Of a DNA stretch of 64,000 nt, positions 30,136 to 63,980 are shown in pieces; positions within the stretch are counted from its first letter, which is position 1; each line of letters opens with the position of its first letter. Location: sequence record NC_018855.1, one strand, 5' to 3'. The position numbers and the translations under genes were made by a program. The notes beneath the pieces are model-generated. The model had not been told where the DNA came from and did no database searches. It saw only the letters and a program-made list of their open reading frames with translations. This stretch comes from Escherichia phage HX01.

Positions 30136-30166
30136 GTTTACATAAGGATGATGGTGTGTTACTATC
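30136..30166 (+). promoter_or_regulatory. T4-type early promoter with stem-loop upstream of ipI
   Basis: GTTTAC -35, TACTAT -10, flanked by inverted repeat AGGATGAT/ATCATCCT. Confidence 0.55.
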
Positions 30167-30199
30167 ATCCTATCAAATAAACAACCTCAAGGAAATAAA

Positions 30200-30487
30200 A
30201 TGAAAACCTATAAAGAATTTATATCACCTGTTGCTAACGTTTCTACTCTGACTGAAGCAACCCTTACTTCCGAAGTTATTAAAGCAAACAAAGGCCGTGA
30301 GGGTAAACCAATGATTAGTCTAGCTGACGGCGAAGAAGTAAAAGGTACTGTTTACTTAGGAGACGGGTGGTCCGCTAAGAAAGATGGCGCTACTATTGTT
30401 ATCTCTCCGGCTGAAGAGACTGCACTGTTTAAAGCTAAGCACATTTCTGTAGCTCAGCTTAAAATTATTGCAAAAACTCTTCTGTAA
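30200..30487 (+). CDS. ipI: Internal protein I-like (capsid-targeted)
   Basis: 95 aa, N-terminal MKTYKEFI capsid-targeting-like sequence; position after 57B. Confidence 0.7.
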   Translation: MKTYKEFISPVANVSTLTEATLTSEVIKANKGREGKPMISLADGEEVKGTVYLGDGWSAKKDGATIVISPAEETALFKAKHISVAQLKIIAKTLL

Positions 30488-30490
30488 GTA

Positions 30491-30528
30491 GTTTACACGC
30501 TGATAGGACTATGTTATAGTAGTCCTAT
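30491..30528 (+). promoter_or_regulatory. T4-type early promoter embedded in stem-loop (PeSL-like)
   Basis: GTTTAC, 18-nt spacer, TATAGT; perfect inverted repeat GATAGGACTA...TAGTCCTATC around the -10. Confidence 0.55.
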
Positions 30529-30558
30529 CAAAACAAAATGAGTAAATGGAGAAATAAA

Positions 30559-30744
30559 ATGAAACGCGCTGAACTGATTCGTAATGTTGCTGTAGTAATT
30601 GCTTCAATGGCTTTTAGTTTTTCGATGTTTGTAGGATTCATTTGTGGACTACTGACAACAACAGAAAATTCTATCTCATTGGTAGTAGCATTTCTAATCG
30701 GCTTAATCGCTATCGTTATGGATAAAATTGCAAAAGGTGAGTAA
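30559..30744 (+). CDS. Small membrane protein (2 predicted TM helices)
   Basis: 61 aa, GGAG RBS 8 nt upstream of ATG 30559; hydrophobic segments. Confidence 0.5.
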   Translation: MKRAELIRNVAVVIASMAFSFSMFVGFICGLLTTTENSISLVVAFLIGLIAIVMDKIAKGE

Positions 30745-30745
30745 A

Positions 30746-31108
30746 ATGAAATATCACGTATATGCGGATTTTGAAGCAAATCCTTCTAAAGACCCTGATT
30801 GTCGTTTGATACGCAGACCATTTGATTCAGCAGCTCAAGCATGGGCTTGGATTAAATCTAAATCGCCTGGTTATATGTTCTTTGAAGTAGTCGATGACAA
30901 TGGTACACTGCATCCGGCCCCTACAGAAACTATTAATTTCCTTCTGTTTGCCGGTTACGACTGTTATCCTCTTGGCGGTATTGACGACCTTGTTGCTACA
31001 GGAAAAACTGTTGAGGCTCTTCGCGAAATTTGTAAAAACGCAGAAGAAAATTTTGACTGGTATCATATTGTTGATGCTCATACCTTTGAAATGGTGGAAC
31101 ATTCATGA
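30746..31108 (+). CDS. Hypothetical protein
   Basis: 120 aa, RBS AAAGGTGAG; tightly packed with neighbours. Confidence 0.5.
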   Translation: MKYHVYADFEANPSKDPDCRLIRRPFDSAAQAWAWIKSKSPGYMFFEVVDDNGTLHPAPTETINFLLFAGYDCYPLGGIDDLVATGKTVEALREICKNAEENFDWYHIVDAHTFEMVEHS

Positions 31109-31395
31109 TTCTTTATGCTAAGGTAAAATCCGTTGAGAATGGATATGAAAGCGACCGAGCTGCAGCTAAAGCACTAGTCGATTACTATGGTATTTTGACC
31201 CACTTTGAAGTTGAAAAGGTTTACGTCGACCGTTCATCTTCACAGGTTAAATTACTTTGGGAAGACCGCAAATTTAATAGTGTGAACTTTGATTTCTTTA
31301 TTGAAACAGAAAAAGGTCCTCTTGAATATGATATTTTCAAGAATCCTTTGAAATTATGTTGCATTGAATATAATTACATTAATATGGTACGGTGA
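31105..31395 (+). CDS. Hypothetical protein
   Basis: 96 aa, ATGA start/stop overlap with upstream gene. Confidence 0.5.
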   Translation: MILYAKVKSVENGYESDRAAAKALVDYYGILTHFEVEKVYVDRSSSQVKLLWEDRKFNSVNFDFFIETEKGPLEYDIFKNPLKLCCIEYNYINMVR

Positions 31396-31399
31396 GTAA

Positions 31400-31915
31400 A
31401 TGAATATTTGTTTAGGCAGTACAATTCCTAAAGGTTACGTAATTGATGTCACTACTTGGGAAAATGACGGCGACAACTATAAAACCAAAACATTATTTGG
31501 TGTAGAAGAGCATGAGCTCCAACAGTTTAAATATCTCTTGAAGAAATTTAAGAGTCGTCATTCTAGCACTAAAGCTGAACGTTACTGTGGTAATACACCA
31601 TTCAGTGATTGCTCGCTTTTAATCTATGAATACTTGGTTGAAGGACTGTTCTCAGACCAGCTTTATCCAGAATTCATTAAAAAGGTCTTTGATATTGAAG
31701 TCGACCTTGGTAATAAATCTGAAGAAGACGAATCGCGTGTATTCGACCTGTTCTTTGTGAAAGGCGATGAGATATCCCAAGGCCTTATTGATATTCTTGG
31801 CTATGCTTCTGAATACTACGACTATGATTTCTTGCGTGTAGTTGAACGTGTTGAATTCGCTTATATTGAAGAAGAAATTGTTTTGCCGACTGTTAAAATG
31901 ATTGATTTGCTTTAA
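31400..31915 (+). CDS. Hypothetical protein
   Basis: 171 aa ORF. Confidence 0.5.
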   Translation: MNICLGSTIPKGYVIDVTTWENDGDNYKTKTLFGVEEHELQQFKYLLKKFKSRHSSTKAERYCGNTPFSDCSLLIYEYLVEGLFSDQLYPEFIKKVFDIEVDLGNKSEEDESRVFDLFFVKGDEISQGLIDILGYASEYYDYDFLRVVERVEFAYIEEEIVLPTVKMIDLL

Positions 31916-31994
31916 GAATTATGTGTTATTATTAATTCATACCCTCTATTACCAAAGGTGCTCTAAAGTGCCTTTCATAATAGAAAGTTATTTA

Positions 31995-32069
31995 GGCCCT
32001 GTAGCTCAATGGGAGAGCTGTCAGCTCATAACTGATAGGTAGCTGGATCGAAACCAGCCAGGGTCACCA
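31995..32069 (+). tRNA. tRNA with CAU anticodon (Met or Ile2-type)
   Basis: Hand-folded cloverleaf: acceptor GGCCCTG/CAGGGTC, U8A9, D-arm GCTC/GAGC, anticodon loop CTCATAA, T-arm GCTGG/CCAGC, encoded CCA. Confidence 0.8.
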
Positions 32070-32072
32070 ATC

Positions 32073-32149
<77 letters not shown>

Positions 32150-32167
32150 ACTTTAAGTGAGGAAAAT

Positions 32168-32512
32168 ATGAAAGGCAATATTTATCTGGTAGTTCATGAC
32201 TTAACGTTTTATTTTAACGAACGTGAAACAGTTATTTCCGATAGGTTAATTAATTCGCTGTATCAGCATGCTGATTATGTCTATTTTCAAAATGAATTCG
32301 GACATTGGAAGTTTCTTAAAAACCGTTCCGGGTTAACTAGTTTTGAATACTTTGACCGTAAAGACCTTTTAAACGAAATTCCATTACAACATCGGTTCCA
32401 GAAACGCGAATCACTATACTATTGTCGTCATATACCAAATGCTGAATGTGTTGATGAAGTAATTAATCTATGGCGTAGACGTAGAGAACAAATTGATGAT
32501 ATGTCAAAATAA
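32168..32512 (+). CDS. Hypothetical protein
   Basis: 114 aa from ATG 32168 with GAGGAAAA RBS just after tRNA-Arg. Confidence 0.5.
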   Translation: MKGNIYLVVHDLTFYFNERETVISDRLINSLYQHADYVYFQNEFGHWKFLKNRSGLTSFEYFDRKDLLNEIPLQHRFQKRESLYYCRHIPNAECVDEVINLWRRRREQIDDMSK

Positions 32513-32610
32513 GAAGCCGGGTCGCTACCGGCAAGTCGTCGGACTGATGTTCCCTGAGTAAGGACTGGTCTTAATAAATCTTTATGATTTGTTAATATCC
32601 CCTTACATCA

Positions 32611-32814: not shown

Positions 32815-32843
32815 TAGCCCCTTCCGAAAGGTTGGGGCTTTTT
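32815..32843 (+). terminator. Rho-independent terminator
   Basis: AGCCCC...GGGGCT hairpin followed by TTTTTT. Confidence 0.7.
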
Positions 32844-32844
32844 T

Positions 32845-32852
32845 GTATAAAT
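32845..32852 (+). promoter_or_regulatory. T4-type late promoter (TATAAATA)
   Basis: TATAAATA directly after the terminator, 37 nt upstream of the 32889 ORF. Confidence 0.55.
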
Positions 32853-33567: not shown

Positions 33568-33596
33568 GTTTACTTCTTCCCTAGATGTGTTACTAT
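33568..33596 (+). promoter_or_regulatory. T4-type early promoter
   Basis: GTTTAC, 17-nt spacer, TACTAT. Confidence 0.5.
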
Positions 33597-33624
33597 AGAC
33601 CTATAAAAACATGAGGAAAATGTT

Positions 33625-33930: not shown

Positions 33931-33997
33931 AATAATGATGTACAAGCACCAAGGATGGTGATACTATAGACTTATCAACTACAGTGGAGTAAACAAA

Positions 33998-34162
33998 ATG
34001 ACTACTTTAATTATTTGGTTTGACGAAAATGAAGAAACATACTGTGTGAACATTGGCGAAAGCCCAATGCCTGAATTTGAATCCTCAGATAAAAACTCTG
34101 TTGTATCTTGGGCTGAAGGTTATAAAGCCGCTAAAGGTGACGTTGAAATAATTTACATCTAA
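33998..34162 (+). CDS. Small hypothetical protein (54 aa, not in ORF track)
   Basis: ATG 33998 after GGAG RBS and an early-promoter-like element; open to TAA at 34160. Confidence 0.4.
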   Translation: MTTLIIWFDENEETYCVNIGESPMPEFESSDKNSVVSWAEGYKAAKGDVEIIYI

Positions 34163-34208
34163 GTAAGTTTATGTTATAGTAATCACATCAAATCAAGAGG
34201 AAAACAAA

Positions 34209-34436
34209 ATGGCTAAAGTTAGTATTGATGTCGTTGATTATGAATACACCGAAGAAGTTATTCGCAACCGTCACCCTGAAGTTCGTATCGATTCAGTCCA
34301 AGATTCCAAGTTCTGGACAACTGAGCTTAATCTAAGTGGTCCTTATGAAGCTGTTAAGAAGTTCATGGTTGAAGAATACTGTGAAGGCATGCACCCAGAA
34401 GACGCCGAGTTTTATGTCAATTTGATTAAAAAATAA
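34209..34436 (+). CDS. Hypothetical protein
   Basis: 75 aa, RBS AGAGGAAAA; early promoter ATTTAC/TATAGT upstream. Confidence 0.5.
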   Translation: MAKVSIDVVDYEYTEEVIRNRHPEVRIDSVQDSKFWTTELNLSGPYEAVKKFMVEEYCEGMHPEDAEFYVNLIKK

Positions 34437-34471
34437 TTTACAAACTCTTGAGAGCAGAGTATAATGCTCTC
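34437..34471 (+). promoter_or_regulatory. T4-type early promoter in stem-loop; copy A of a repeated 45-bp module
   Basis: TTTACA, 17-nt spacer, TATAAT with -10 in loop of GAGAGCA/TGCTCTC stem; near-identical copy at 63914-63965. Confidence 0.6.
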
Positions 34472-34506
34472 GTTGGATAACAAACCACCAATTGAAAGGT
34501 AATAAT

Positions 34507-36110: not shown

Positions 36111-36451
36111 CCGTATGGCCTTCTCTTGGTGAGAACATTCTAATTTTTATTATGAGTATTGGCATGGGATTTGCCTTTGGATTAGTTGGATTTCTTATTG
36201 ACGGCGTTGTGTTAGGATTTATAGGGAACACTGGTGGATTCACAGACCAATGGCAGGACTTACGGTATACCCAAGCCTTTGCATCCATCGCATCATTTTG
36301 TACTGTAGTCTATTTTTACTACGATTTTATAAACCATAACAAGAAAAATAAAAAGGTTTACGCTTCTCAAATGATTAGTTATAATGAACTCCTAGCTAGA
36401 CGTGAAAATGAAACAATAGAAAACTTTATTAAGGAATGTAGAAATGAGTAA
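36089..36451 (+). CDS. Small membrane protein, C-terminal ENFIKECR motif family
   Basis: 120 aa, hydrophobic N-terminal half, ends ...ENFIKECRNE. Confidence 0.55.
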   Translation: MQKPQLLTVWPSLGENILIFIMSIGMGFAFGLVGFLIDGVVLGFIGNTGGFTDQWQDLRYTQAFASIASFCTVVYFYYDFINHNKKNKKVYASQMISYNELLARRENETIENFIKECRNE

Positions 36452-37242: not shown

Positions 37243-37280
37243 GTTTACAACAAGATAGGGCTATGTTATAGTAGTCCTAT
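37243..37280 (+). promoter_or_regulatory. T4-type early promoter embedded in stem-loop
   Basis: GTTTAC, 18-nt spacer, TATAGT; inverted repeat GATAGGGCTA/TAGTCCTATC. Confidence 0.55.
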
Positions 37281-37300
37281 CAAATTAAATGGAGTCCACA

Positions 37301-38537: not shown

Positions 38538-38575
38538 GTTTACACAATTATAGGGCTATATTATAGTAGTCCTAT
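38538..38575 (+). promoter_or_regulatory. T4-type early promoter embedded in stem-loop
   Basis: GTTTAC, 18-nt spacer, TATAGT; inverted repeat TATAGGGCTA/TAGTCCTAT. Confidence 0.55.
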
Positions 38576-38595
38576 TAAAACATGAGGAGAATATT

Positions 38596-40761: not shown

Positions 40762-40770
40762 GTAATAAAT

Positions 40771-40792
40771 ACCTCCTATAAACGTGGGAGGT
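40771..40792 (+). promoter_or_regulatory. RBS-sequestering hairpin upstream of e, with late-promoter-like TATAAA in loop
   Basis: ACCTCC-TATAAACGTG-GGAGGT; 3' arm is the e Shine-Dalgarno, as described for T4 e. Confidence 0.5.
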
Positions 40793-40795
40793 ATT

Positions 40796-41284
40796 ATGAA
40801 TATATTTGAAATGCTTCGTAATGACGAAGGTCTTAGACTGACTTTATACAAAGACACTGAAGGCTTTTGGACGATTGGCATAGGCCATTTAGTAACAAAG
40901 AACCCATCTTTAGCCGTAGCTAAAGCTGAACTTGACAGAATGATCGGCCGTAAATGCAACGGTACAATTACCCTTGATGAGGCTGAAAAGCTATTTAATG
41001 AAGACGTTGATAAAGCCGTTCGCGGAATCTTGGGTAATGCTAAACTTAAACCGGTATACGATTCTTTAGATGCGGTTCGTCGTTGTGCATTGGTCAATAT
41101 GGTCTTCCAAATGGGTGTAGCAGGCGTCGCCGGTTTTACTAATTCTCTTCGTATGCTTCAACAGAAACGTTGGGACGAAGCGGCAGTAAATCTAGCCCAA
41201 TCTAAATGGTATCGTCAGACACCCAATCGCGCGAAACGCGTAATATCAACATTTAAAACAGGAACTTGGAAAGCGTATATATGA
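40796..41284 (+). CDS. e: Endolysin (T4 lysozyme) gpe
   Basis: [32 protein letters not shown]... very close to T4 lysozyme by recall. Confidence 0.92.
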
Positions 41285-41549
41285 AAACATATAGTGAATT
41301 TTTATCAGAATCTATTCTTAACGAAGCTACTGACACATTTGCAACTAAGTTAGGTGCAGCTTTGGTTGAAGCCGAAAGTCTATTAGCACGTATTTTAAGA
41401 TAGATACTCGCAAATTTGAACGTACCAGTGATATCGTTAAGCTTGAAGCCTTGTTGCGTATGTGTGATAAACCGGAAGAAATCGCTAAGAACGGCTCGCT
41501 GATGAAACAACGTCTTGAAAAATATATTTCAGGCGCTTCAGAAAAATAG
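41281..41549 (+). pseudogene. Internal-protein-like gene interrupted by a frameshift
   Basis: [10 protein letters not shown] capsid-targeting-like start, in-frame TAG at 41401 after 40 codons, coding continues in the -1 frame for 48 codons to 41549. Confidence 0.45.
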
Positions 41550-41550
41550 T

Positions 41551-41605
41551 GTTTACTTCCTCCAAGGGTTTTGATACTATACATTCATCAACTACTTGGA
41601 GGAAA
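41551..41605 (+). promoter_or_regulatory. T4-type early promoter with long stem-loop enclosing -10 and denV RBS
   Basis: GTTTAC, 18-nt spacer, TACTAT; 10-bp inverted repeat TTCCTCCAAG...CTTGGAGGAA whose 3' arm is the SD. Confidence 0.55.
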
Positions 41606-41607
41606 TT

Positions 41608-42021
41608 ATGACTCGTATCAATTTAACACTTGTTTCTGAACTGACCGACCAACATCTTATGGCTGAGTATCGTGAATTACCACGCGTATTTGGTGCAGTC
41701 CGTAAACATGTTCAAAACGGTAAACGTGTAAAGGATTTTAAAATCTCCCCGACATTTATCTTAGGCACAGGTCATGTAACATTCTTTTACGACAAACTCG
41801 AATTTTTACGTTTACGTCAAATCGAGCTAATCGCTGAATGCTTGAAACGTGGTTTCAAAATCAAGGACACGACTGTCCAAGATATTTCCGACATCCCTGC
41901 CGAATTTCGTAATAATTATGTCCCGACCGAAGCGTCCATTGCGATAAGTCAAGCTCGTTTAGATGAAAAAATTGCTCAACGTCCTACTTGGTACAAATAC
42001 TATGGTAAATCAATTTACTAA
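41608..42021 (+). CDS. denV: Endonuclease V (pyrimidine-dimer glycosylase) DenV
   Basis: [34 protein letters not shown]... matches T4 endo V by recall. Confidence 0.92.
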
Positions 42022-42052
42022 GGAAAAAGGTTGCGATGGTAAAGCTTAAACA

Positions 42053-42082
42053 GTTTACGCTTAAGTATTAATATGGTATAAT
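42053..42082 (+). promoter_or_regulatory. T4-type early promoter
   Basis: GTTTAC, 18-nt spacer, TATAAT. Confidence 0.55.
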
Positions 42083-42112
42083 TACTCTATCAAAACAAAC
42101 AAGGAAACAAAA

Positions 42113-42415
42113 ATGAAAACATATCAAGAATTTATTACTGAAGCGCGAGTGAGTGCAGGTAAATTAGAAGCCGCTATAAATAAAAAGGCCCATTCATTTC
42201 ACGATTTGTCCGATAAAGACCGTAAGAAACTTGTAAGCCTTTATATTGACAAAGAGCGTATTCTCGCTCTTCCTGGCGCTAATGAAGGTAAACAGGCCAA
42301 GCCTTTGAATGCTGTTGAAAAGAAAATTGATAACTTTGCTTCTAAATTCGGTATGTCTATGGATGACCTTCAGCAAGCGGCTATCGAAGCAGCTAAAGTA
42401 ATTAAAGGTAAATAA
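42113..42415 (+). CDS. ipII: Internal protein II-like (capsid-targeted)
   Basis: 100 aa starting MKTYQEFITEA (canonical capsid-targeting sequence). Confidence 0.65.
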   Translation: MKTYQEFITEARVSAGKLEAAINKKAHSFHDLSDKDRKKLVSLYIDKERILALPGANEGKQAKPLNAVEKKIDNFASKFGMSMDDLQQAAIEAAKVIKGK

Positions 42416-42417
42416 CA

Positions 42418-42470
42418 GTTTACTTTCTCCTAGAATTGTGATAGTATAATCATAATTACTTGGAGAGGTA
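42418..42470 (+). promoter_or_regulatory. Early promoter/stem-loop duplicate driving a denV remnant
   Basis: GTTTAC ... TATAAT ... TTGGAGAGG, homologous to the denV promoter. Confidence 0.5.
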
Positions 42471-42472
42471 AA

Positions 42473-42525
42473 ATGACTCGATGAAAAAATTTTAATGAAG
42501 CCACACTGGTATAAGTATTAAGGCA
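42473..42525 (+). pseudogene. denV remnant (5' start fused to degraded 3' end)
   Basis: ATGACTCG (as denV start) then TGA after 3 codons; following GATGAAAAAATT...CACTGGTATAAGTAT matches denV 3' end DNA. Confidence 0.4.
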
Positions 42526-44360: not shown

Positions 44361-44659
44361 TGGCTCAAATCCTATCAGGCTTTGGAACTCATTATGAAGC
44401 ATCTCGACGCATAACTGAAAGCAATCCTTTTGGCCTTGTTCCGAAGCACAAGAAAATTCAAAGCCTTGATGACTTTGAGAATCGCCTATGGGCCCTCTTT
44501 AATGAGTACAAGGCATATCTGAAAGAAGACGCTGACGATTGTCTTGAAGAAGATGAGATTGCGTATTATGAACAACGCCTTGAACAGCTCAAGAACTTCC
44601 ACCAGGTTCGTGACGAAGTATCTAAAGCAGTTAAAAAGTTAATTCCTTTCAAAGAGTAG
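44360..44659 (+). CDS. Hypothetical protein
   Basis: 99 aa ORF. Confidence 0.5.
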
Positions 44660-44707
44660 TTTACTTCTCCTCTAGTTGTGTTACTATAGACCTGTCAACT
44701 AGAGGAG
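44659..44707 (+). promoter_or_regulatory. T4-type early promoter with 14-bp stem-loop enclosing -10 and regB RBS
   Basis: GTTTAC, 17-nt spacer, TACTAT; perfect inverted repeat TTCTCCTCTAGTTG...CAACTAGAGGAGAA. Confidence 0.6.
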
Positions 44708-44715
44708 AAATCAAA

Positions 44716-48243: not shown

Positions 48244-48249
48244 TTTACT

Positions 48250-48278
48250 AGCCCCTTCCTTACGGTTGGGGCTTTTTT
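48250..48278 (+). terminator. Rho-independent terminator after rI
   Basis: AGCCCC...GGGGCT hairpin + TTTTTT; near-duplicate of the 32815 terminator. Confidence 0.7.
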
Positions 48279-48288
48279 GCATTTAGCA

Positions 48289-48340
48289 GTTTACTTCTCC
48301 TCAGGTTGTGTTATAGTAGACCTTACTTACTAGAGGAGAA
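48289..48340 (+). promoter_or_regulatory. T4-type early promoter with stem-loop enclosing -10 and RBS
   Basis: GTTTAC, 17-nt spacer, TATAGT; inverted repeat TTCTCCTC...GAGGAGAA. Confidence 0.55.
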
Positions 48341-48344
48341 CGTT

Positions 48345-48788: not shown

Positions 48789-49003
48789 TGCTGTATGACC
48801 CAAGTGGTAATTTTGAAAATGGTGTGATTGTTCTGGAACCTGAGCATCCAGTTGGTGACGTATACCGCCCAGTTGAAGTATGTGAATGTAATTTTGTTGC
48901 AGGTAATACTGGTGGGATTTCCATTGAGCAAGATGATGATGTTATTTACCTGGATGCAAGCCAAGTAGAAGCGCTTTATAGTATTTTAAAACACAATCGG
49001 TAG
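48788..49003 (+). CDS. Small protein, MLYD paralogue B
   Basis: 71 aa MLYDPSGNFENGVIVLEPE... Confidence 0.45.
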   Translation: MLYDPSGNFENGVIVLEPEHPVGDVYRPVEVCECNFVAGNTGGISIEQDDDVIYLDASQVEALYSILKHNR

Positions 49004-49043
49004 TTTACGTCTTGGTAGGACTATGATATAGTAATCCTACCAA
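49003..49043 (+). promoter_or_regulatory. T4-type early promoter embedded in stem-loop
   Basis: GTTTAC, 18-nt spacer, TATAGT; inverted repeat GGTAGGACTA...TAGTAATCCTACC. Confidence 0.55.
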
Positions 49044-49060
49044 GACAAATGGAGAACAAA

Positions 49061-50362: not shown

Positions 50363-51372
50363 TGAAAACAATTGTGAAAACTTATTTTGGTAGTCACCTT
50401 TATGGAACGTCTACTCCTGAATCTGACGTCGATTTTAAAGAAATTTACGTCCCTCATGCTCGTGATATCTTGACCGGTAACGTTAAAGAACATATGAGCA
50501 AGAACACGAATAACACGTCTTCTAAGAACACAAAAGACGACGTGGACCATGAGTTGTATAGTCTCAAATATTTCTTTAAACTAGCTGCAGATGGTGAAAC
50601 AGTCGCATTAGATATGCTTCACACTCCACCAAGTTTAGTAGTTAAATCTGATTTGCCTGACGTGTGGAAGTATATTCAAGACAACAGGTCTCGTTTCTAT
50701 ACTACTAACATGAAATCTTATTTAGGGTATGTCCGTAAGCAAGCTTCTAAATATGGCGTCAAGGGTTCTCGATTGGCCGCATTACGTGATGTATTGAAAG
50801 TAGTTAATCAAATCCCTGACCAGTGGGTTGATTACCAAGAGGGAATTCCAGATCGTTTACGCCGAACTAAGGTAGAAGATATCAAACACCGACTCCCTGA
50901 AAACGAGTTTTGTGAATGGGTATTCCATAATCATGAGAAAACCGGTCCACAAACGTTCTACACTGTGTTGGGTCGTAAATATCAGACAACACTTTCTCTT
51001 ATTGAGCTTAAGCAGTCTTTGAATAAACTTGATGCCGAATACGGTGAACGTGCTCGTAAGGCAGAAGCTAACGAAGGTATTGACTGGAAAGCATTGAGTC
51101 ATGCATGCCGTGGTGGACTTCAATTATTGGAAATTTACAAAACCGGCGACCTGGTTTACCCGCTTCAAGATGCTCCATTTATTCTCGATGTTAAGCTTGG
51201 TAAACATACGTTTAAAACTGTACAAGAATTCCTGGAAGATATTGTTGACCAGGTAGAACATGCGTCAGAACAAGCCGCTAAGAATGGTATGCAGCAAAAA
51301 GTAGATATGAGTTTCTGGGATGACTTCCTTGAACAAGTTTACTTAGAAAACCACAATTCGTACTATAAATGA
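50359..51372 (+). CDS. Nucleotidyltransferase-fold protein (pol-beta superfamily)
   Basis: N-terminal YFGSHLYGTSTPESDVDF = G[GS]x9-13DxD motif, downstream acidic DDVDHE; 337 aa. Confidence 0.6.
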   Translation: MMKTIVKTYFGSHLYGTSTPESDVDFKEIYVPHARDILTGNVKEHMSKNTNNTSSKNTKDDVDHELYSLKYFFKLAADGETVALDMLHTPPSLVVKSDLPDVWKYIQDNRSRFYTTNMKSYLGYVRKQASKYGVKGSRLAALRDVLKVVNQIPDQWVDYQEGIPDRLRRTKVEDIKHRLPENEFCEWVFHNHEKTGPQTFYTVLGRKYQTTLSLIELKQSLNKLDAEYGERARKAEANEGIDWKALSHACRGGLQLLEIYKTGDLVYPLQDAPFILDVKLGKHTFKTVQEFLEDIVDQVEHASEQAAKNGMQQKVDMSFWDDFLEQVYLENHNSYYK

Positions 51373-51419: not shown

Positions 51420-51448
51420 GTGTACATGCTTTTAGGATATGTTATTAT
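51420..51448 (+). promoter_or_regulatory. T4-type early promoter
   Basis: GTGTAC, 17-nt spacer, TATTAT upstream of the AAA+ ATPase gene. Confidence 0.5.
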
Positions 51449-51486
51449 AGACCTATCGAAACGAAATGAGTAAATTGGAGAATAAA

Positions 51487-52467: not shown

Positions 52468-52605
52468 GCTTATAGGAAGTTCTGAGGTAACAAAAGCCAT
52501 AAAGATGAATAATCATATGGCTTACCTCAAAGAAGGACACCAGGAACCTACTGAGGGCATAGAAATATTTAAAAATAATGGTGTACAAATCAAAGAGGAT
52601 ATGTT

Positions 52606-52893
52606 ATGGATTTTATGCAAAAAATTAAAGCCGCAGTCGAACTGTATGCTCATCGTATGGTTAGTTCTACGATGCAATATAGCGAGGAGGTTCGCCAGGA
52701 CTCTTCCTTGAAAGGAAAAACTAAAGCCTTAATTACCTTAGACCGTCTACAAAAGAATGCCCTAGAGTTGTTCCAGTACGACAAGGATGCATATAAGAAA
52801 GAACAGGAAGAGAAACTTAAATCCGAAAAATTACAGAAAGTCCCGAAGTCTGTTTGGTTCAGTGGAAAAAATACCGAAAAAAGTTTCTTTTAG
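52606..52893 (+). CDS. Hypothetical protein
   Basis: 95 aa, RBS AAAGAGGA. Confidence 0.5.
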   Translation: MDFMQKIKAAVELYAHRMVSSTMQYSEEVRQDSSLKGKTKALITLDRLQKNALELFQYDKDAYKKEQEEKLKSEKLQKVPKSVWFSGKNTEKSFF

Positions 52894-52895: not shown

Positions 52896-52935
52896 GTTTA
52901 CAAGGTCTATGGTTATGTTATTATAGACCTATCAA
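52896..52935 (+). promoter_or_regulatory. T4-type early promoter embedded in stem-loop
   Basis: GTTTAC, 17-nt spacer, TATTAT; inverted repeat GGTCTAT...ATAGACC. Confidence 0.55.
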
Positions 52936-52951
52936 CTACTGGAGGTAAAAC

Positions 52952-53541: not shown

Positions 53542-54537
53542 ATGAGCATTACATCTGATGCGGTAAAACATGAAATTAACGGTTTATGTGCTTCACAGAT
53601 TAAAGTATGGTTTAAAGACCATAATGATCGCAGAGCACTTAATTATGAGCAAATTGCTATCCAAGTTCATCAATTACTGACTAGTAAATTTGATTTTCAT
53701 ATGCCGTCTGAAATCTATACTAATCTACCGCGAGCGCTTATTAAAGCGTGTAAAGGTTACGGAAAATCAATGGCCGATGGAATCTTCAGCGCGCTGAATA
53801 AACTTAACGTTCTGTCGATGATTAACTCTAACAACATCCTGCGTAATCTAGGACGTACTGATTTGTTCGGTCGTGAACAGTGTAAAATGCCTTTGAAATG
53901 GATTGTTGCTCATCTTAACGAGAACCAAACACGTTTTATGGCCGTATCAGCACGCTTACAAATGGGCCTAGATCGTCAGATGAACTTTAAAACTCATCCA
54001 CGGTATTCAGGTTCAACAGACTTTTATAAATGTGAGCTTCAAAAGGTTGCAGGTAAAACTGTCTTAGTAGTTCGTGTAACGTTTGAAGGACGACGTCAAG
54101 GATATTTTGACCTAATCGGCTCTGGTCTTAAACATTGTGGATTTATTGACGAAGTTGATATTAAGCGAGACGGCATTGGATACCGTATTGGATATGTTTG
54201 TACTCTTAAAGAAGAGATTTCAGGACCAGCACCAGGACTAAAAGACGTTAGATATAAAGACGAGCTTGTTGAAGAAATAAAAGAAGTTGAATATGATATC
54301 AACCAAGAAGATGCTCTTAAAGACCTTATTGATGAACTAAACCAAGACATTATTCCGGTTCAGAAATTTGAATCAAAACATGTTGAGCAAATCAAATACT
54401 TTGAAGCTTTGATTAACGAACTTAATGTAACTATTCAACAGACTGATGATGAAATCTCACGATTAGCAGGCTTAAATGGTAAAAATAAAACGGAACGAGC
54501 TAATCTTATTCAAGTAGTAAAACTTCTTAAGGAATGA
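53542..54537 (+). CDS. Hypothetical 331-aa protein with C-terminal coiled coil (tandem family member 1)
   Basis: Long ORF, RBS GAGGAAA, C-terminal heptad-rich tail. Confidence 0.6.
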   Translation: MSITSDAVKHEINGLCASQIKVWFKDHNDRRALNYEQIAIQVHQLLTSKFDFHMPSEIYTNLPRALIKACKGYGKSMADGIFSALNKLNVLSMINSNNILRNLGRTDLFGREQCKMPLKWIVAHLNENQTRFMAVSARLQMGLDRQMNFKTHPRYSGSTDFYKCELQKVAGKTVLVVRVTFEGRRQGYFDLIGSGLKHCGFIDEVDIKRDGIGYRIGYVCTLKEEISGPAPGLKDVRYKDELVEEIKEVEYDINQEDALKDLIDELNQDIIPVQKFESKHVEQIKYFEALINELNVTIQQTDDEISRLAGLNGKNKTERANLIQVVKLLKE

Positions 54538-54566
54538 TGTACAACCAGGGATGGTTGGAGTATAAT
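54538..54566 (+). promoter_or_regulatory. T4-type early promoter with CAACCA/TGGTTG stem-loop
   Basis: TGTACA, 17-nt spacer, TATAAT; near-duplicate of 55533 promoter. Confidence 0.55.
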
Positions 54567-54592
54567 AAATTTTTCAACATGAGGAATATAAA

Positions 54593-55532: not shown

Positions 55533-55562
55533 GTTTACAACCAAGGATGGTTGGAGTATAAT
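55533..55562 (+). promoter_or_regulatory. T4-type early promoter with CAACCA/TGGTTG stem-loop
   Basis: GTTTAC, 18-nt spacer, TATAAT. Confidence 0.55.
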
Positions 55563-55590
55563 CTTTCTATCTTAACGAGAGGAAAATATT

Positions 55591-56541: not shown

Positions 56542-56855
56542 AAAAGCGTCTATTAGAAGATATTGCAGCTTCAAGTAATTCCAGTCTAATTAAAATTATT
56601 ATGGCTGGTGAAGAAGACGATTTAGAAATGCGCGGAAAGATTCATGGTTGTGACGATTTAGATTTTAAACCTCCGGCTTGGGATGCCATTATGGCTATGG
56701 TTAAACGTCGCGAAAGGGCTTCTAAAAACGTTCCTAATTGTCCTGAATGTGGTACTGAACAGGTTCAATTAGTTCATTGGCAGACTAGTAATCTTCGTTA
56801 TAAATGCCGTCATTGTAAACACCGATTTGACCGAGAAGAAAATGACAAAGCGTAA
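56538..56855 (+). CDS. Zn-ribbon hypothetical protein
   Basis: 105 aa with CPECG...CRHC four-Cys cluster. Confidence 0.5.
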
Positions 56856-57084
56856 AGAATATATGGAGACTGCTGAAAAGGCAGTCCGTGAATTAGCAAT
56901 AGCGTATTATAATGAACACGGTAAATTTCCTGATAGATACAGCGTGCTTAAATCTGCTTTAACTCGTTCATATAAAAATATGCTATCAGAAGTAAGTGAT
57001 ATTATATACAAACATAAAGAACAAACAGGTCAAAGTCTTGATTACGACGAGACTTTTAAACAAGTACTAGGAATTAAGGAATAA
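56842..57084 (+). CDS. Hypothetical protein
   Basis: 80 aa from ATG 56842; start uncertain. Confidence 0.45.
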
Positions 57085-57085
57085 T

Positions 57086-57349
57086 ATGTTTAAAGTATAT
57101 GGTTATGATAGCAGCATCCATAAATGTGTGTATTGCGATAATGCAAAACGTCTTTTGACCGTAAAGAAACAGCCGTTTGAATTTATCAACATTATGCCGA
57201 AAAAAGGTGTTTTTGATGATGAGAAAATTGCTGAGCTTCTGACTAAACTAGGTCGTGATACTCAAATTGGACTGACGATGCCACAAGTATTTGCTCCTGA
57301 TGGAAGTCATATTGGTGGATTTGACCAATTGCGGGAATACTTTAAATGA
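57086..57349 (+). CDS. nrdC: Thioredoxin/glutaredoxin NrdC
   Basis: MFKVYGYDSSIHKCVYCDNAKRLL... 87 aa, matches T4 NrdC by recall. Confidence 0.9.
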   Translation: MFKVYGYDSSIHKCVYCDNAKRLLTVKKQPFEFINIMPKKGVFDDEKIAELLTKLGRDTQIGLTMPQVFAPDGSHIGGFDQLREYFK

Positions 57350-57561
57350 TGCTTGAAGGAACTGATTATATCCATGACTACCGCGGAAGCGCGGTATATG
57401 TAGGTGATGAAGTCGCAGTTTATTATGGGTATGGAACTTTGATGACAGCAAAGGTTATTCAAATTAAAAATAATCATGCTAAACTCGAAGTTTATTATTC
57501 TAACGGTGAAAAGTCTATTTCTAAATGGAAATACGGCGATTGTATGGTCAAACTGGGGTAA
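57346..57561 (+). CDS. Hypothetical protein
   Basis: 71 aa, ATGA overlap with nrdC stop. Confidence 0.45.
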   Translation: MMLEGTDYIHDYRGSAVYVGDEVAVYYGYGTLMTAKVIQIKNNHAKLEVYYSNGEKSISKWKYGDCMVKLG

Positions 57562-57563
57562 AT

Positions 57564-57734
57564 ATGATTTACGATATTAGTGTATCAAGAACTCCGTCAA
57601 TGGTTACTATTCCTGCTGAAGAATTAGATCGTCTTCAGAAAATTGAAGAGCTTCTTTGGGAAATTGAATCTGATTTGCCATCAGGATTAGAATCCTGGAT
57701 TGATTATGAAGAACTTAATAAATTGCGAAATTAA
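57564..57734 (+). CDS. Small acidic hypothetical protein
   Basis: 56 aa from ATG 57564. Confidence 0.4.
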   Translation: MIYDISVSRTPSMVTIPAEELDRLQKIEELLWEIESDLPSGLESWIDYEELNKLRN

Positions 57735-57744
57735 GTGGTGACAA

Positions 57745-58065
57745 ATGACTATTGAAAATAAATTAGATGTTGATGCAGTTCTGAGTGAAATCATCGAAGA
57801 CCATGACGCATTTTCAGAAAATTATGATTTCGATTTTTCGGATTATCTTAAACCTGTCGAAATAGAAGATTGGGTACAAGATGGCAAATGCCAATATCGG
57901 CAGTGCGTTTATTTTAGTCCAAAACATAACGTTCATGTGTCTGTAAATGAATCTCGCTCAGGTTCTTACCATTCTGACTGGTATTATGCAGTTCCGACTG
58001 TTGAACTAGTTGAGCCTCGTGAACGTGTAGTAACTCAGACAATACGAGAATGGATTACGCTATAA
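57745..58065 (+). CDS. Hypothetical protein
   Basis: 106 aa ORF. Confidence 0.5.
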   Translation: MTIENKLDVDAVLSEIIEDHDAFSENYDFDFSDYLKPVEIEDWVQDGKCQYRQCVYFSPKHNVHVSVNESRSGSYHSDWYYAVPTVELVEPRERVVTQTIREWITL

Positions 58066-58188
58066 AACCTTGGTGGGCGGCTAGATGGGAAACAGTAGAG
58101 CCAGAGCCGGAAGAACCGGTTTACACTGATGAAGAAACAGTATATAATGAACCAACGATAAATGACTTAATTGATATGGAGATGGGAT

Positions 58189-58635
58189 ATGATTGCAGTA
58201 GATAAGTGGTTTAGAATTAATCGTGCTGATAAAGGGCTGTGTAATTACTGGCCGGAACTTAGTGCAGGTACTGTCTTTAAAGTTCGTGAACTCGCAAAAG
58301 AATGCGAAGATGATATAGAACCTGATATTGGAATTATTGAAATTGAACTTTCTGATGGAAAGATTATTAACATCTATGATAAGCCAATTACGTATTGGTG
58401 CTTGTGGAATACTGAATCCGCAGAAAATGGCGAGATTGAAGAAGTTGTAGAACGAGTTGATCAAGCTATTCATAAACCTAAAGCTGGATTTCAGGGTGAA
58501 CGTATTTCATATGCATTATCTAAATCGGCGTTGAAAAAAGATATTGATGATTACGAAGGAAATTTGATGCAAGCTGCGGCAGAATATATTGAATGGCTTG
58601 AAACTCAAATTTCTTTTTCTGACCGAGCGTTTTAA
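58189..58635 (+). CDS. Hypothetical protein
   Basis: 148 aa from ATG 58189 (RBS GGAGATGGG); ORF-track start 58171 is TTG. Confidence 0.5.
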   Translation: MIAVDKWFRINRADKGLCNYWPELSAGTVFKVRELAKECEDDIEPDIGIIEIELSDGKIINIYDKPITYWCLWNTESAENGEIEEVVERVDQAIHKPKAGFQGERISYALSKSALKKDIDDYEGNLMQAAAEYIEWLETQISFSDRAF

Positions 58636-58684
58636 TACTTGAAAATAATAAATACCTTTATCTATTCAAGGTAAGGGTTTTATT

Positions 58685-62089: not shown

Positions 62090-62378
62090 AATTTATGGCA
62101 TCCCTGAAGAAGTAGGACGTTGTCCAGGATGTTATACTGTTACAAAACTTTTAAAGGAGCTCAATGCTCCTTATACATTTTATAAAGTCCTCACTAATAA
62201 TGGTAAGATTGAATATGACCGTCCTTTAATCGTATCTCTTGCTAAACGTGCAGGATTCACTTCACTTAATATTCGTTATCCTGTCATATTTTTAAATGAT
62301 AAGAAACAAAAGAATATTGCAGAGTTTAAAAAGTCCTTGATTTCATTAGGATATGACTCTGATATCATAGAAGATTGA
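62085..62378 (+). CDS. nrdH: Thioredoxin-fold protein (NrdH/glutaredoxin-like), start codon uncertain
   Basis: ...KIEIYGIPEEVGRCPGCYTV... CPGC redox motif; no in-frame ATG/GTG/TTG after upstream stop; candidate ATT at 62085. Confidence 0.55.
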   Translation: MEIYGIPEEVGRCPGCYTVTKLLKELNAPYTFYKVLTNNGKIEYDRPLIVSLAKRAGFTSLNIRYPVIFLNDKKQKNIAEFKKSLISLGYDSDIIED

Positions 62379-62404
62379 CCAGGTGCCGCCTGGTCTTCTT
62401 TATC
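62377..62404 (+). terminator. Rho-independent terminator after nrdH
   Basis: GACCAGG-TGCCG-CCTGGTC hairpin followed by TTCTTTATCT. Confidence 0.6.
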
Positions 62405-62486
62405 TCATTTCTAATATAATCCATTGGAATCTTCACTTCACTATCTCCTTGTGCCCCTCTCAAATCGAAAATATTTTCATAAAACA

Positions 62487-62515
62487 GTTTACATCCTCAA
62501 TAGATGTGTTAAGAT
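62487..62515 (+). promoter_or_regulatory. T4-type early promoter
   Basis: GTTTAC and TAAGAT-like -10, partial inverted repeat. Confidence 0.45.
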
Positions 62516-62543
62516 TAAACCATCTACTATAGAGGAAAATAAA

Positions 62544-62726
62544 ATGACAATTGAAGATAAAGAAATTAAGGTCGACCAGTACTATTCTGTCAATGGTAAT
62601 GCAGTACAGATAACCAGAGTTTCAAGCCTGGATGTTTGGTACCATTCAATCAAATATCCAGAAATTGGTGAAATGCTTTGTGACCGTGGTATCTTCTGTT
62701 CAATTGCGAAGGAAATTAAGCCATGA
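62544..62726 (+). CDS. Small hypothetical protein
   Basis: 60 aa from ATG 62544 (RBS AGAGGAAAA). Confidence 0.4.
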   Translation: MTIEDKEIKVDQYYSVNGNAVQITRVSSLDVWYHSIKYPEIGEMLCDRGIFCSIAKEIKP

Positions 62727-62971
62727 TTAGTTTAGATTCAAAGAAAGTTGTTCTAACTCTTAATGTAAACAACGAACGTCCGATATTCATTACCATTTCC
62801 GATTTGCATGTTGAAATTGCTAATGGCGTCCGTACTTATCAAACGTCTAAAACACAATGGGACTATATCCCAATGTTGACGCTTACTCAGCGTTTAGAAT
62901 CAATCGGTCTTAAAGACCTTTCAGTAAGTGAAGTGAATTTTATCAAACGCATTGTATCAATCAACCTCTGA
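62723..62971 (+). CDS. Hypothetical protein
   Basis: 82 aa, ATGA overlap. Confidence 0.45.
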   Translation: MISLDSKKVVLTLNVNNERPIFITISDLHVEIANGVRTYQTSKTQWDYIPMLTLTQRLESIGLKDLSVSEVNFIKRIVSINL

Positions 62972-62978
62972 GGTACTT

Positions 62979-63272
62979 ATGGGTAAAACATATCGTCGTA
63001 AAGATTTGAAAGTTCGCGATTACGACTATTTTGGTAAACGTAAAGCTCCTGACGGTGTTAGCCACAAAGACATGGTTGAAAACATTTTCCGCTCAGATAA
63101 ATGGAAACGTATGAAAGGCGTTGATTCTGAAGTCAAGAACGAAATGAATCGACAACTTCGCAAAGAAGTTCGTAAGTTGAAAAAAGATGTTTACAGTAAA
63201 GAAGAGTATGATTATAATACTTCTCATACTGAAGCCAAACGTAAAGCTAACGAATGTTATCGTTACAGTTGA
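62979..63272 (+). CDS. Small basic protein
   Basis: 97 aa Lys/Arg-rich from ATG 62979. Confidence 0.45.
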   Translation: MGKTYRRKDLKVRDYDYFGKRKAPDGVSHKDMVENIFRSDKWKRMKGVDSEVKNEMNRQLRKEVRKLKKDVYSKEEYDYNTSHTEAKRKANECYRYS

Positions 63273-63279
63273 GGAAATT

Positions 63280-63414
63280 ATGAATATCAAACGAATGCTT
63301 TTTAAGCAGGGATTATATACTTTAAATGTTAATCCAAAGGGTGATACAACTAAATGGTCTGTAAATGACTGGATTAAGTTCATCGATGAAAATGGGGCGT
63401 GGAACACAAAATGA
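63280..63414 (+). CDS. Small hypothetical protein
   Basis: 44 aa from ATG 63280 (RBS GAGGAAA). Confidence 0.3.
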   Translation: MNIKRMLFKQGLYTLNVNPKGDTTKWSVNDWIKFIDENGAWNTK

Positions 63415-63611
63415 ATCCTGAAAATATTGTGTCATGGCAACTTCGTGAAGAACGTGCCGAATTCTTTGCCAATATGAAACTCAACGGCGTTGAGGACGAA
63501 GACTTCTTACGCTGGTTCTGGATTTACAAATACAAAGAATGTCAACATGCTGTGCTATTGACTTGCGCAGCTATGTACGAAGGCTGGAAAGGCGCTAAAA
63601 AGTTCGGTTAA
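63411..63611 (+). CDS. Small hypothetical protein
   Basis: 66 aa from ATG 63411. Confidence 0.4.
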   Translation: MNPENIVSWQLREERAEFFANMKLNGVEDEDFLRWFWIYKYKECQHAVLLTCAAMYEGWKGAKKFG

Positions 63612-63613
63612 TA

Positions 63614-63658
63614 ATGTACAACGATAGGAAGACATGTTATTATCTTCCTATCGTCTTA
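63614..63658 (+). promoter_or_regulatory. T4-type early promoter embedded in stem-loop
   Basis: TGTACA, TATTAT; inverted repeat GATAGGAAGA...TCTTCCTATC. Confidence 0.55.
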
Positions 63659-63674
63659 AAATGAGGAAAATATC

Positions 63675-63914
63675 ATGGCCCAAGAATTAGATTTTATCAA
63701 ATTCAAAAAACACCTCGACGTTAAAATTGGGGATTCAATTGTTAGGATTGAGTATGACATTTTAACAGATGCTATTACTGTTAGTTGTGATGGAAATAGT
63801 TTCAGCTTCGATACAACAGAAAACAAATACCCAATATATAAAGGTATCTTTGATATGGGTGTCGATATCAGCCCACGCGATACAAATTACTTGCTTTTCA
63901 TGCTTAAAAAATAG
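63675..63914 (+). CDS. Hypothetical protein
   Basis: 79 aa, RBS GAGGAAAA. Confidence 0.45.
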   Translation: MAQELDFIKFKKHLDVKIGDSIVRIEYDILTDAITVSCDGNSFSFDTTENKYPIYKGIFDMGVDISPRDTNYLLFMLKK

Positions 63915-63949
63915 TGTACAGACTCTTGAGAGCAGAGTATAATGCTCTC
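63914..63949 (+). promoter_or_regulatory. T4-type early promoter in stem-loop; copy B of the repeated 45-bp module
   Basis: GTGTACA, 17-nt spacer, TATAAT in GAGAGCA/TGCTCTC stem; about 40 of 44 nt identical to 34444-34487. Confidence 0.6.
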
Positions 63950-63980
63950 ATTGGATAATAAAATAACCGAGGAAAATAAT

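Follow-up and report, generated by a model that had tools for sequence, protein, structure and literature searches.

The early region of Escherichia phage HX01 raises the question of why so many of its predicted promoters are embedded in stem-loops, and what these stem-loops could do for the small genes behind them. In this study, the window is the whole stretch of 64,000 nucleotides (nt) that was analysed from sequence record NC_018855.1, and the elements in question lie on the plus strand of its 30-64 kb part, to which the figures below refer. This part is 96-97% identical to the RB69-like phages vB_EcoM_JS09 (hereafter JS09), ZQ3 and pEK20 of the genus Mosigvirus, and its plus strand, with the JS09 annotation as a guide, is the direction of early transcription. 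The plus-strand order is 57B, ipI, tRNA.x, two tRNAs, e.x, nudE, e, internal protein (IP) genes, denV, vs.x and regB in the first half, and tk.x, tk, rI, mobD.x, nrdC.x, nrdC, pin, 49, nrdD, nrdG and 55.x in the second, and the part can be recognised as the classical T-even non-essential early region, the ipI-to-55.x block of a Mosigvirus. We find that the elements occur well above chance and are an instance of the promoter-early stem-loop (PeSL) cassettes described for T4-type phages (Arbiol et al. 2010, PMC2839356; Comeau et al. 2014, PMC4122927), here in a lineage where they are uncatalogued. As to how they act, the reading that we favour, and hold to be reasonably probable, is that they combine sigma70 immediate-early promoters, hairpins that would form on read-through RNA only, and promoter cores that would serve as homologies for recombination.

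With reference to the promoters themselves, a sequence-only reading of the window had claimed at least 18 plus-strand early-promoter sites, and the search pattern, [GA]T[GT]TAC-N16-19-TA[TC][AT][AG]T, was built from its description only. The pattern matches 23 times on the plus strand and never on the minus strand, compared with 0.61 +/- 0.72 matches and a maximum of 3 in 100 dinucleotide-preserving shuffles. Together with the oddly spaced site at 42418 these matches make the set of 24 sites used below, of which 20 are intergenic and have a Shine-Dalgarno sequence (SD) and an ATG 22-41 nt 3' of the -10 box; the claimed number is therefore reached, and all three sequences that had been quoted were found exactly where they had been placed. 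The consensus of the sites is aaaaAataGTTTACa...TgtTATaaTa.tCcTATCaaa, with TGn at 14 of 20 sites, and the 25 nt upstream contain 41% A against a background of 33% (A+T 72% against 63% for the region). The sites thus display the marks of a T4-type early promoter, namely a GTTTAC-like -35 box, TGn, a -10 box, an A-rich UP element and conserved positions around +1. This agrees with the UP/-35/TGn/-10 plus extra consensus by which T4 early promoters have been described (PMC2988021), and the T4 counterpart of the regB promoter has been called a typical early promoter (PMC3014915). A direct-repeat search made without promoter input also returned the promoter elements as the largest repeat families of the region (D1-D5, D7, D8, D10 and D17). 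A generic scan for TTGACA and TATAAT showed no overall enrichment (76 vs 66 +/- 8 and 77 vs 73 +/- 8), so that, with the T4-type GTTTAC consensus enriched, the elements are not mere promoter-like AT-rich sequence. From consensus, strand bias, gene context and homology to T4 promoters, it is highly likely that they are immediate-early sigma70 promoters.

The most similar two elements, 34423-34484 and 63901-63962, agree at 55 of 62 nt and have a 28-nt core without any difference, at a median identity of 45% among element pairs, which confirms the near-identical distant copies noticed earlier. Their likeness ends before the SD and the N-termini of the downstream proteins are unrelated, so that the pair shares a regulatory element only, and an origin from paralogous downstream genes was rejected. 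Hairpin promoters of the N4 type were rejected as well, the elements having full sigma70 -35 and -10 boxes and stems conserved neither in sequence nor in size.

At 12 of the 24 sites the -10 box is surrounded by an inverted repeat of 8 bp or more, one mismatch being allowed. The corresponding rates are 5.9% in shuffles and 8.7% in genomic windows taken at random from the region (binomial p about 2e-7), and the repeats are thus more frequent than base composition would give. The RNAfold z-score is -2 or lower at 13 of the 24 sites. Counting unrelated stems only, about 8 remain among about 17 unrelated sites (p about 4e-5, by arithmetic from the null rate of inverted repeats). A permutation test, which is independent of composition, showed that the 5' half of a site pairs better with its own 3' half (mean best match 7.9 bp) than with the 3' halves of other sites (6.0 bp), the observed sum being reached in none of 20,000 permutations.

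These hairpins fall into several classes. At seven sites (30136, 30491, 37243, 38538, 49003, 52896 and 63614) the -10 box lies in the 3' arm or the loop and the 3' arm ends near +1 to +10 (the +1 type), while at 34436 and 63914 TATAAT occupies the loop. In the anti-SD type, found at 41551 (denV), 42418, 44659 (regB) and 48289, the 5' arm directly follows the -35 box and the 3' arm is the SD. Hairpins of 5-6 bp confined to the spacer, (A/C)ACCA-RGGA-TGGT(T/G), occur at 33938, 54537 and 55533, and about 8 sites have no convincing hairpin (33568, 34151, 42053 and 51420, plus the intragenic 36356, 51337, 58119 and 63189). The sequence-only reading had put the -10 box into the loop or an arm of an inverted repeat at 18 or more sites and the SD often into the 3' arm; the former stands at about 13-16 sites and not at the number claimed, and the latter stands at the four anti-SD sites and not elsewhere, so that "often" was overstated (4 of 24).

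The stems were then followed through 30 related loci (L004-L033), obtained by scanning viral contigs with the RegB, NrdC.6 and e.6 proteins and ranging in RegB identity from 97% down to 40%, with T4 and JS09 added. Orthologous promoters of regB, denV, ipI, tRNA.4 and mobD.2 keep a hairpin of changed sequence. In the regB element of the window (44659..44715, z -4.0), the 5' arm TTCTCCTCTAGTTG (44665-44678) in the promoter spacer pairs with the 3' arm CAACTAGAGGAGAA (44696-44709), which includes the SD. The same spacer-SD helix is TTTTCCTCTTGACTG / CAGTTAAGAGGAGAA in T4, with U.G and G.U pairs, and elsewhere TTTCTCCTCTTTATG / CATAAAGAGGAGAAA, TCTCCTGTAAGT / ACTTACAGGAGA, ATCTCCTTTTAGT / ACTAAAAGGAGAT or CCTCCTTTT / GAAAGGAGG. 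The stem cores across lineages are CTAGTTG/CAACTAG, CTTGACTG/CAGTTAAG, CTTTATG/CATAAAG, TGTAAG/CTTACA, TTTTAGT/ACTAAAA and CCTCCTTTT/GAAAGGAGG, that is, at least six stem versions, every one of which pairs the promoter spacer with the SD. A GGAG-anchored pair count of the regB leaders gave seven compensatory columns with both sides changed, a number biased towards pairing in that the stem register was picked for each sequence to pair maximally; RNAalifold, run on ten regB leaders aligned with MAFFT, found no structure, as their loops differ in length and shift the 3' arms out of register. Compensatory covariation as at regB was also observed at denV (41551..41607, z -4.2), whose 5' arm TTCCTCCAAG lies in the spacer and whose 3' arm CTTGGAGGAA is the SD.

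The other promoters behave similarly. The ipI stem is AGGATGAT/ATCATCCT in the window and GATGAGGTA/TACCTCATC at the same place in T4, and the mobD.2 stem is GGTAGGACTAT in the window as against TTGACAAGATTAT in T4. The element at 49003..49060 forms a 15-bp hairpin, GTCTTGGTAGGACTAT/GTAATCCTACCAAGAC (z -5.8), for which the T4 mobD.2 orthologue has AGTTGACAAGATTAT/GTAATCTTGTCAACT, and locus L007 obtains the same pairing through two G.U pairs. A change of GATAGG/CCTATC in the window to GGTAGG/CCTACC in L033 stands 5' of an identical protein. The tRNA.4 orthologues have at least six different stems, of the anti-SD type in L028 and L030 and of the +1 type in the window, and nrdC.8, with a +1-type hairpin in the window, has a T4 orthologue in which GTTCCTC pairs with the SD GAGGAAC. 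Since one gene can carry the +1 type in one lineage and the anti-SD type in another, the two types are suggested to serve a related purpose. Strong hairpins are present in 69 of the 137 distinct promoter-like sequences from all loci, and the mismatches in their stems are of the G.T type 32 times and of the A.C type 10 times, a count that includes repeated homologues and some G.T pairs where TGn or the -10 box constrains both arms. Such an asymmetry is expected of sense-strand RNA and not of duplex or cruciform DNA.

To compare own-promoter with read-through RNA, transcription was assumed to start about 7 nt after the -10 box, on the strength of homology to T4 and of the spacing usual between -10 and +1; neither of the T4 records NC_000866 and AF158101 contains promoter features, and a literature search for mapped T4 transcription start sites gave nothing usable. 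On this assumption, the read-through RNA of regB folds at z -3.4 with its SD paired and its own transcript at +1.4, and the corresponding values are -4.9 and +2.2 for denV and -1.8 and +1.4 for the element at 30491. Across the 20 intergenic sites, the 60-mers of own-promoter RNA fold less stably than shuffles (mean z +0.80, p 3e-5), and the same 60-mers extended back to the -35 box fold more stably (mean z -1.58; paired Wilcoxon p 5e-5). A start signal that is paired in the long RNA and free in the short one, as in a promoter-in-hairpin switch, is predicted at 41551, 42418, 44659 and 48289 and at none of the other 20 sites. The proposal that read-through transcripts have their ribosome binding site sequestered is thus upheld at 4 of 24 sites, with covariation at regB and denV, and does not extend to most sites, where the SD lies free beyond a 3' arm that stops near +1 to +10.

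According to the favoured reading, host sigma70 RNA polymerase would read the promoters, the 5' arm of the hairpin would lie in the spacer, upstream of the start site, and the 3' arm at about +1 to +10 in the majority or on the SD in regB, denV, the gene behind 48289 and the relic at 42418. With its 5' arm upstream of the start, an element should give an own-promoter RNA that lacks this arm and has an open leader, and only read-through RNA should contain the complete hairpin. In the anti-SD subclass, translation would then depend on the gene's own early promoter, so that synthesis should stop with the shut-off of early promoters 2-3 min into infection. The GGAG of this subclass may also be shielded from RegB, as RegB is inhibited by RNA structure (PMC1702504). 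In the +1 subclass, a hairpin 10-25 nt 5' of a free SD would most plausibly be an intercistronic barrier to processing, decay or elongation. More tentatively, at somewhat under even confidence, we suggest that the hairpins are a general, selected "transcript-origin discriminator", which leaves the leader open on own-promoter RNA and closes it on read-through RNA; the reviews consulted contain no description of such a device. If this is true, the anti-SD form, whose pairing is kept by covariation at regB and denV in lineages with about 56-66% RegB identity, would be the early-promoter mirror image of the late switch of e, 49, soc and I-TevI, RegB, DenV and others would be made only in the first minutes, and GGAG sites on read-through RNA would be protected from RegB.

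The third part of the favoured reading is that the conserved promoter cores act as short homologies, through which recombination would insert, delete and relocate cassettes of promoter plus gene, as the PeSL model has it; in that model, recombining neighbour copies also give rise to mini-circles of DNA. The window was compared by BLAST with four independent close relatives, JS09 and three IMG/VR contigs, and 14 of the 37 unique homology breakpoints between 30 and 64 kb were inside elements, whose share of the region is 5% (p about 1e-9 by area). Whole promoter-gene cassettes are present, absent or relocated among these relatives. The ipI cassette 30143-30490 is missing in L033, with the junction in GTTTACA, the common -35 box of the promoters at 30136 and 30491. 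At 38538, JS09 has an extra 263-bp cassette of a promoter and a 66-codon gene, with the crossover in the -35 box, and essentially the same 263-bp cassette stands 5' of nrdC.10 in the T4-like L008 (RegB 77% identical). In L005 a 234-bp gene is inserted between two copies of the promoter at 51420, and the window looks like a recombinant of such a duplicated arrangement through the common ATGTTATTATAGACCTATC. Again, L033 has a 291-bp insertion at the promoter 34436 (34431-34445), the gene directly 5' of regB is replaced in all four relatives with the right junction at 44655, the regB -35 box, and the JS09 copy of the 55.2 element is missing its -35 box. In the stretch 42416-42484 an orphan element of the denV type stands before ATGACTCGATGA, which spells the three opening codons of denV and then a stop; in L007, denV is driven by the same element as the orphan at 42418, and in the window the real denV, at 41608, lies behind a second copy with the internal-protein gene 42113-42415 in between. 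This arrangement looks like the scar of a cassette insertion. All localised crossovers lie in conserved promoter boxes and none in the variable stems. The anatomy of the elements and their gain, loss and relocation in close relatives accord with the cassette identity that the sequence-only reading had proposed.

Two further observations concern recombination in this region. Codons for MKTY(K/S/Q)EF, the capsid-targeting sequence, start three internal-protein genes (30197-30222, 41278-41303 and 42110-42135) and extend the homology of the promoter elements into the coding region. In a 2-kb block from nrdC.2 to pin (56565-58643) the identity to relatives is 78-80%, compared with 95-98% on either side of it, and the block can be read as an allele replacement with breakpoints away from promoter elements.

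Beside the biases attached to the covariation counts above, several points weigh against the favoured reading. Relative to gene boundaries, 22% of gene starts having an element, the enrichment of breakpoints is modest (p about 0.02), and the breakpoints 44365, 46740, 47099, 56565 and 58643 are at places without an element, so that recombination at elements would be only one of several routes by which the region changes. The hairpin is not obligatory, for it is missing from about a third of the promoters. The p-values are inflated because the sites are paralogous and the related loci phylogenetically nested. The hairpins of the +1 subclass leave the SD unpaired, and no particular effect can be assigned to them. 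For this phage, we infer start sites, read-through and translational effect alike from the letters of the genome. Moreover, the upstream stop codon precedes the 5' arm by 0-10 nt, and a ribosome terminating there could open the hairpin and turn the block into coupling.

A first alternative, which we regard as unlikely yet worth weighing, is that the stem-loops terminate or attenuate upstream transcription, so that the cassettes are insulated and little read-through RNA is made. A PeSL stem-loop of RB49/phi1 did cut a downstream lacZ about as much as rrnB T1 (PMC2839356), T4 has a canonical UUCG terminator at the 55.2 site where the window has the GAGAGC hairpin, and the promoters behind canonical terminators (33568, 48289 and 51420) have weak or interrupted hairpins. 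However, this apparent substitution of terminators for promoter hairpins (suggestive, at about p 0.03, if 48289 is scored as weak) is lost once 48289 is counted as a hairpin, and is given as a remark only. A scan for intrinsic terminators, that is, a G+C-rich hairpin plus a U run, found none at the promoter hairpins and matches elsewhere (e.g. 35109, 46081 and 61004), and no promoter hairpin is followed by a U-tract, A-rich CAAAAC standing there instead. The stems are AT-rich without the G4/C4 of the tested RB49 element, and the anti-SD loops measure 17-30 nt. The terminator role claimed for PeSL stem-loops thus receives no support from the sequence of these elements, with which attenuation without a U-tract would be compatible.

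Two observations on terminators belong here. A pair of near-identical terminators (88%) lies 15.4 kb apart at 32815-32848 and 48249-48282 (TAGCCCCTTCC..GGTTGGGGCTTTTTTG), the second directly 5' of the element at 48289. At 63901-63962 the window has the GAGAGC...GCTCTC hairpin, and upstream of 55.2 T4 (L002) has a terminator with a UUCG tetraloop, GGGCTTCGGCCTTTTT, behind which the same GGATAATAAAAT stands; a promoter hairpin in the window and a terminator in T4 thus occupy equivalent positions before 55.2.

Translational coupling, to which we give a small chance, would explain the anti-SD hairpin differently, a ribosome that ends the upstream gene unwinding the 5' arm and freeing the SD, so that read-through RNA would be translated only along with the upstream cistron. 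The geometry is suitable, since the upstream TAG overlaps GTTTAC at regB and precedes it by 1 nt at denV, and the 5' arm begins 5-8 nt past the upstream stop, within reach of a terminating ribosome. Against this, the stems of 11-15 bp reach past the ribosome footprint, and in T4 gene e, which has the same geometry, translation of the long transcript is down about 100-fold (PMC3014915).

It is very improbable that the inverted repeats act in DNA, as cruciforms or symmetric sites over the -10 box that tune opening or shut-off, or as hot spots for endonuclease VII. The seven +1-type sites, with 10-15 bp stems and 3-10 nt loops centred on the -10 box, would suit such a role, the mechanism of early-promoter shut-off is unexplained (PMC2988021), and a stem-binding protein was speculated upon by the PeSL authors. 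The stems, however, differ among sites and orthologues, which gives no common operator, and the excess of G.T (32) over A.C (10) is unpredicted by a double-stranded or cruciform function. Additionally, the same gene is of the +1 or the anti-SD type depending on lineage, the 17-30 nt loops of the latter disfavour cruciform extrusion, and the localised crossovers fall outside the stems, either at the -35 box or within the -10/+1 block.

That the hairpins are functionless by-products of quasi-palindrome-templated mutation, for which T4 is the classic system, and of recombination among paralogous promoters is hardly credible: the elements clearly recombine, several are paralogous and a third of the promoters lack a hairpin, but unrelated stems recur at the same position (spacer against +1 or SD) in many genes and in lineages with 56-66% RegB identity, the anti-SD pairing always covers GGAG, own-promoter leaders are less and extended RNAs more structured than shuffles, and the G.U bias points to selection on one strand.

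Comparison with known systems supports placing the elements with the PeSL cassettes. Like these, they are intergenic in a hyperplastic early region, with A/T-rich upstream sequence, sigma70-type -35 and -10 boxes spaced by about 17 nt, a stem-loop between or across these boxes, SD and ATG; they occur in many copies flanking single small open reading frames (ORFs) and are tied to indels and replacements among close relatives; and the PST/T4 consensus TTTACW...TAYWAT and AGNA...TCNT stems fit GTTTACA and AGGA...TCCT here. The differences are that the RB69-like Mosigvirus was treated in neither PeSL paper, that the stems of the window are AT-rich without G4/C4, with none terminator-like and about a third of the promoters stemless, and that localised crossovers in the window fall in promoter boxes, in copies known here from their sequence. 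The data thus put the PeSL idea to an independent and quantitative test in a lineage of T4-type phages that the original papers did not cover, and support short regulatory repeats as linkers for the shuffling of accessory genes in T-even-type phages. They also split the PeSL concept, the conserved boxes being the places of crossover and the variable stems apparently selected as RNA. For annotation, about 20 promoter positions are gained, and small ORFs can be seen to come and go as units of promoter plus gene.

The anti-SD hairpins resemble T4 e, 49, soc and I-TevI, in which the long transcript has its SD or AUG paired and an internal promoter gives translatable RNA without the 5' arm (PMC3014915). 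Pairing of the SD in the long RNA and a promoter in or beside the 5' arm are common to both (here regB, denV and 48289). In those T4 genes, however, a late internal promoter (TATAAATA, gp55) delays expression, whereas here an immediate-early sigma70 promoter would do the reverse. The late TATAAATA motif is absent as internal promoter from the early elements and occurs within the window in the e and 49 leaders only. The classical late-promoter/RBS hairpins are present there, at 40762-40795 5' of the lysozyme gene e (gtaaTAAATAcctcctataaacgtgGGAGGtatt-ATG) and at 58636-58684 5' of 49 (..aaTAAATAcctttatctattcaaggtaagggttttatt-ATG, hairpin 58654-58678), each with a TATAAATA-like motif beside the 5' arm. 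The early-promoter cases regB and denV are not on the switch list of the 2010 review (PMC3014915). As far as we have found, they are the least documented part of the system, and their covariation is undocumented. The spacer-SD pairing at regB and denV offers a testable hypothesis, namely that immediate-early proteins may be switched off while transcription continues through their genes.

Conserved promoter/leader flanks have been described for the IP loci of T-even phages (Repoila et al. 1994, as cited in PMC2839356 and PMC4122927). In the window, ipI (30200) and the IP gene at 42113 are likewise bounded by elements and conserved N-terminal targeting codons, and close relatives either lack ipI or have it replaced, the junctions falling in promoters; the difference is that the element type here spans the whole 34-kb early region. 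A 1986 paper on 58-65 kb of T4 reportedly pointed out that stem-loops could form ahead of ipIII, ipII, denV and the ORF that is today's regB. Lambdoid morons (promoter, gene and terminator) are similar in that single accessory genes with their own promoter come and go as units, and different in that moron flanks are non-repeated and not thought to drive movement, whereas here the promoter cores are the junctions.

Along the plus strand, the first element belongs to ipI (30136..30199; -35 GTTTAC at 30136, -10 TACTAT at 30160), whose 12-bp hairpin with G.U (30145-30156 / 30160-30171, z -3.2) holds the -10 box in its 3' arm, and the second to tRNA.4 (30491..30558), where TGATAGGACTAT/GTAGTCCTATCA (30501-30512 / 30519-30530, z -5.1) has the -10 box TATAGT in the loop and 3' arm. 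The element at 33568..33624 has no convincing hairpin (z +0.4) and a UUCG-type terminator immediately 5', that at 33938..33997 has the -35 box ATGTAC and the hairpin CACCA-AGGA-TGGTG confined to the spacer, and that at 34151..34208 has no hairpin (z +1.3) and a -35 box, ATTTAC, overlapping the preceding stop codon. The e.6 element (34423..34506, family D7) is copy 1 of the near-identical pair, with (T)GAGAGCA / TGCTCTC(G) around TATAAT in an 8-nt loop (z -2.4). At 36356..36403 a consensus promoter-like site without hairpin lies within the 3' end of an ORF, at the right breakpoint of a 250-bp deletion in L005. Hairpins follow at 37243..37300 (GATAGGGCTAT/GTAGTCCTATC, one G.U pair, z -3.8) and 38538..38595 (TTATAGGGCTAT/GTAGTCCTATTA, z -3.7). 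After denV, the promoter element of the internal-protein gene (42053..42112) has no hairpin and has shared breakpoints at its upstream edge (42028-42038) and in the first 30 nt of the gene, and the orphan denV-type anti-SD element (42418..42484) pairs TTTCTCCTAG with CTTGGAGAGG (z -3.4).

Beyond regB, the anti-SD element of a mobD.2a-like gene (48289..48344) pairs TTCTCCTC with GAGGAGAA and has an inner AGGT/ACCT helix. A promoter-like match without hairpin at the end of nrdC.11 (51337..51366) is probably fortuitous. The nrdC.10 element (51420..51486) has only a weak hairpin and a terminator upstream, and the nrdC.8 element (52896..52951) forms AGGTCTATGGT/ATTATAGACCT (z -2.1). Two members of family D17 have spacer hairpins, AACCA-GGGA-TGGTT at 54537..54592 (-35 ATGTAC) and AACCA-AGGA-TGGTT at 55533..55590, the core of the latter being 96% identical to the 54540 copy. 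The perfect GTTTAC-18-TATAAT matches within ORFs at 58119..58148 (no hairpin) and 63189..63218 (a 7-bp inverted repeat only) have no start codon nearby and could be internal promoters or chance. At 63614..63674 (-35 ATGTAC) the 12-bp hairpin ACGATAGGAAGA/TCTTCCTATCGT has the -10 box TATTAT in its loop and 3' arm (z -4.1), and the 55.2 element (63901..63980), copy 2 of the near-identical pair, has GAGAGCA/TGCTCTC with TATAAT in the loop (z -3.2).

Some minor features complete the region. A weak further element, GTTTAC-17-TAAGAT (62487-62545), precedes a gene starting near 62545; it belongs to repeat families D3/D4 and was missed by the promoter pattern. The 138-nt non-coding gap at 52468-52605, of which the stretch 52469-52633 is missing in the close relative L005, contains a lone GTGTAC without a -10 box, which may be a decayed element. 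Rfam 15 at gathering score, applied to 28-64 kb, matched two tRNAs only (31995-32149) and none of the promoter hairpins. These are just two tRNA genes (Met-CAT and Arg-TCT), the T4 equivalent having eight tRNAs, segB and two small RNAs, and the flank of the pair, 32043-32588, is mostly non-coding.

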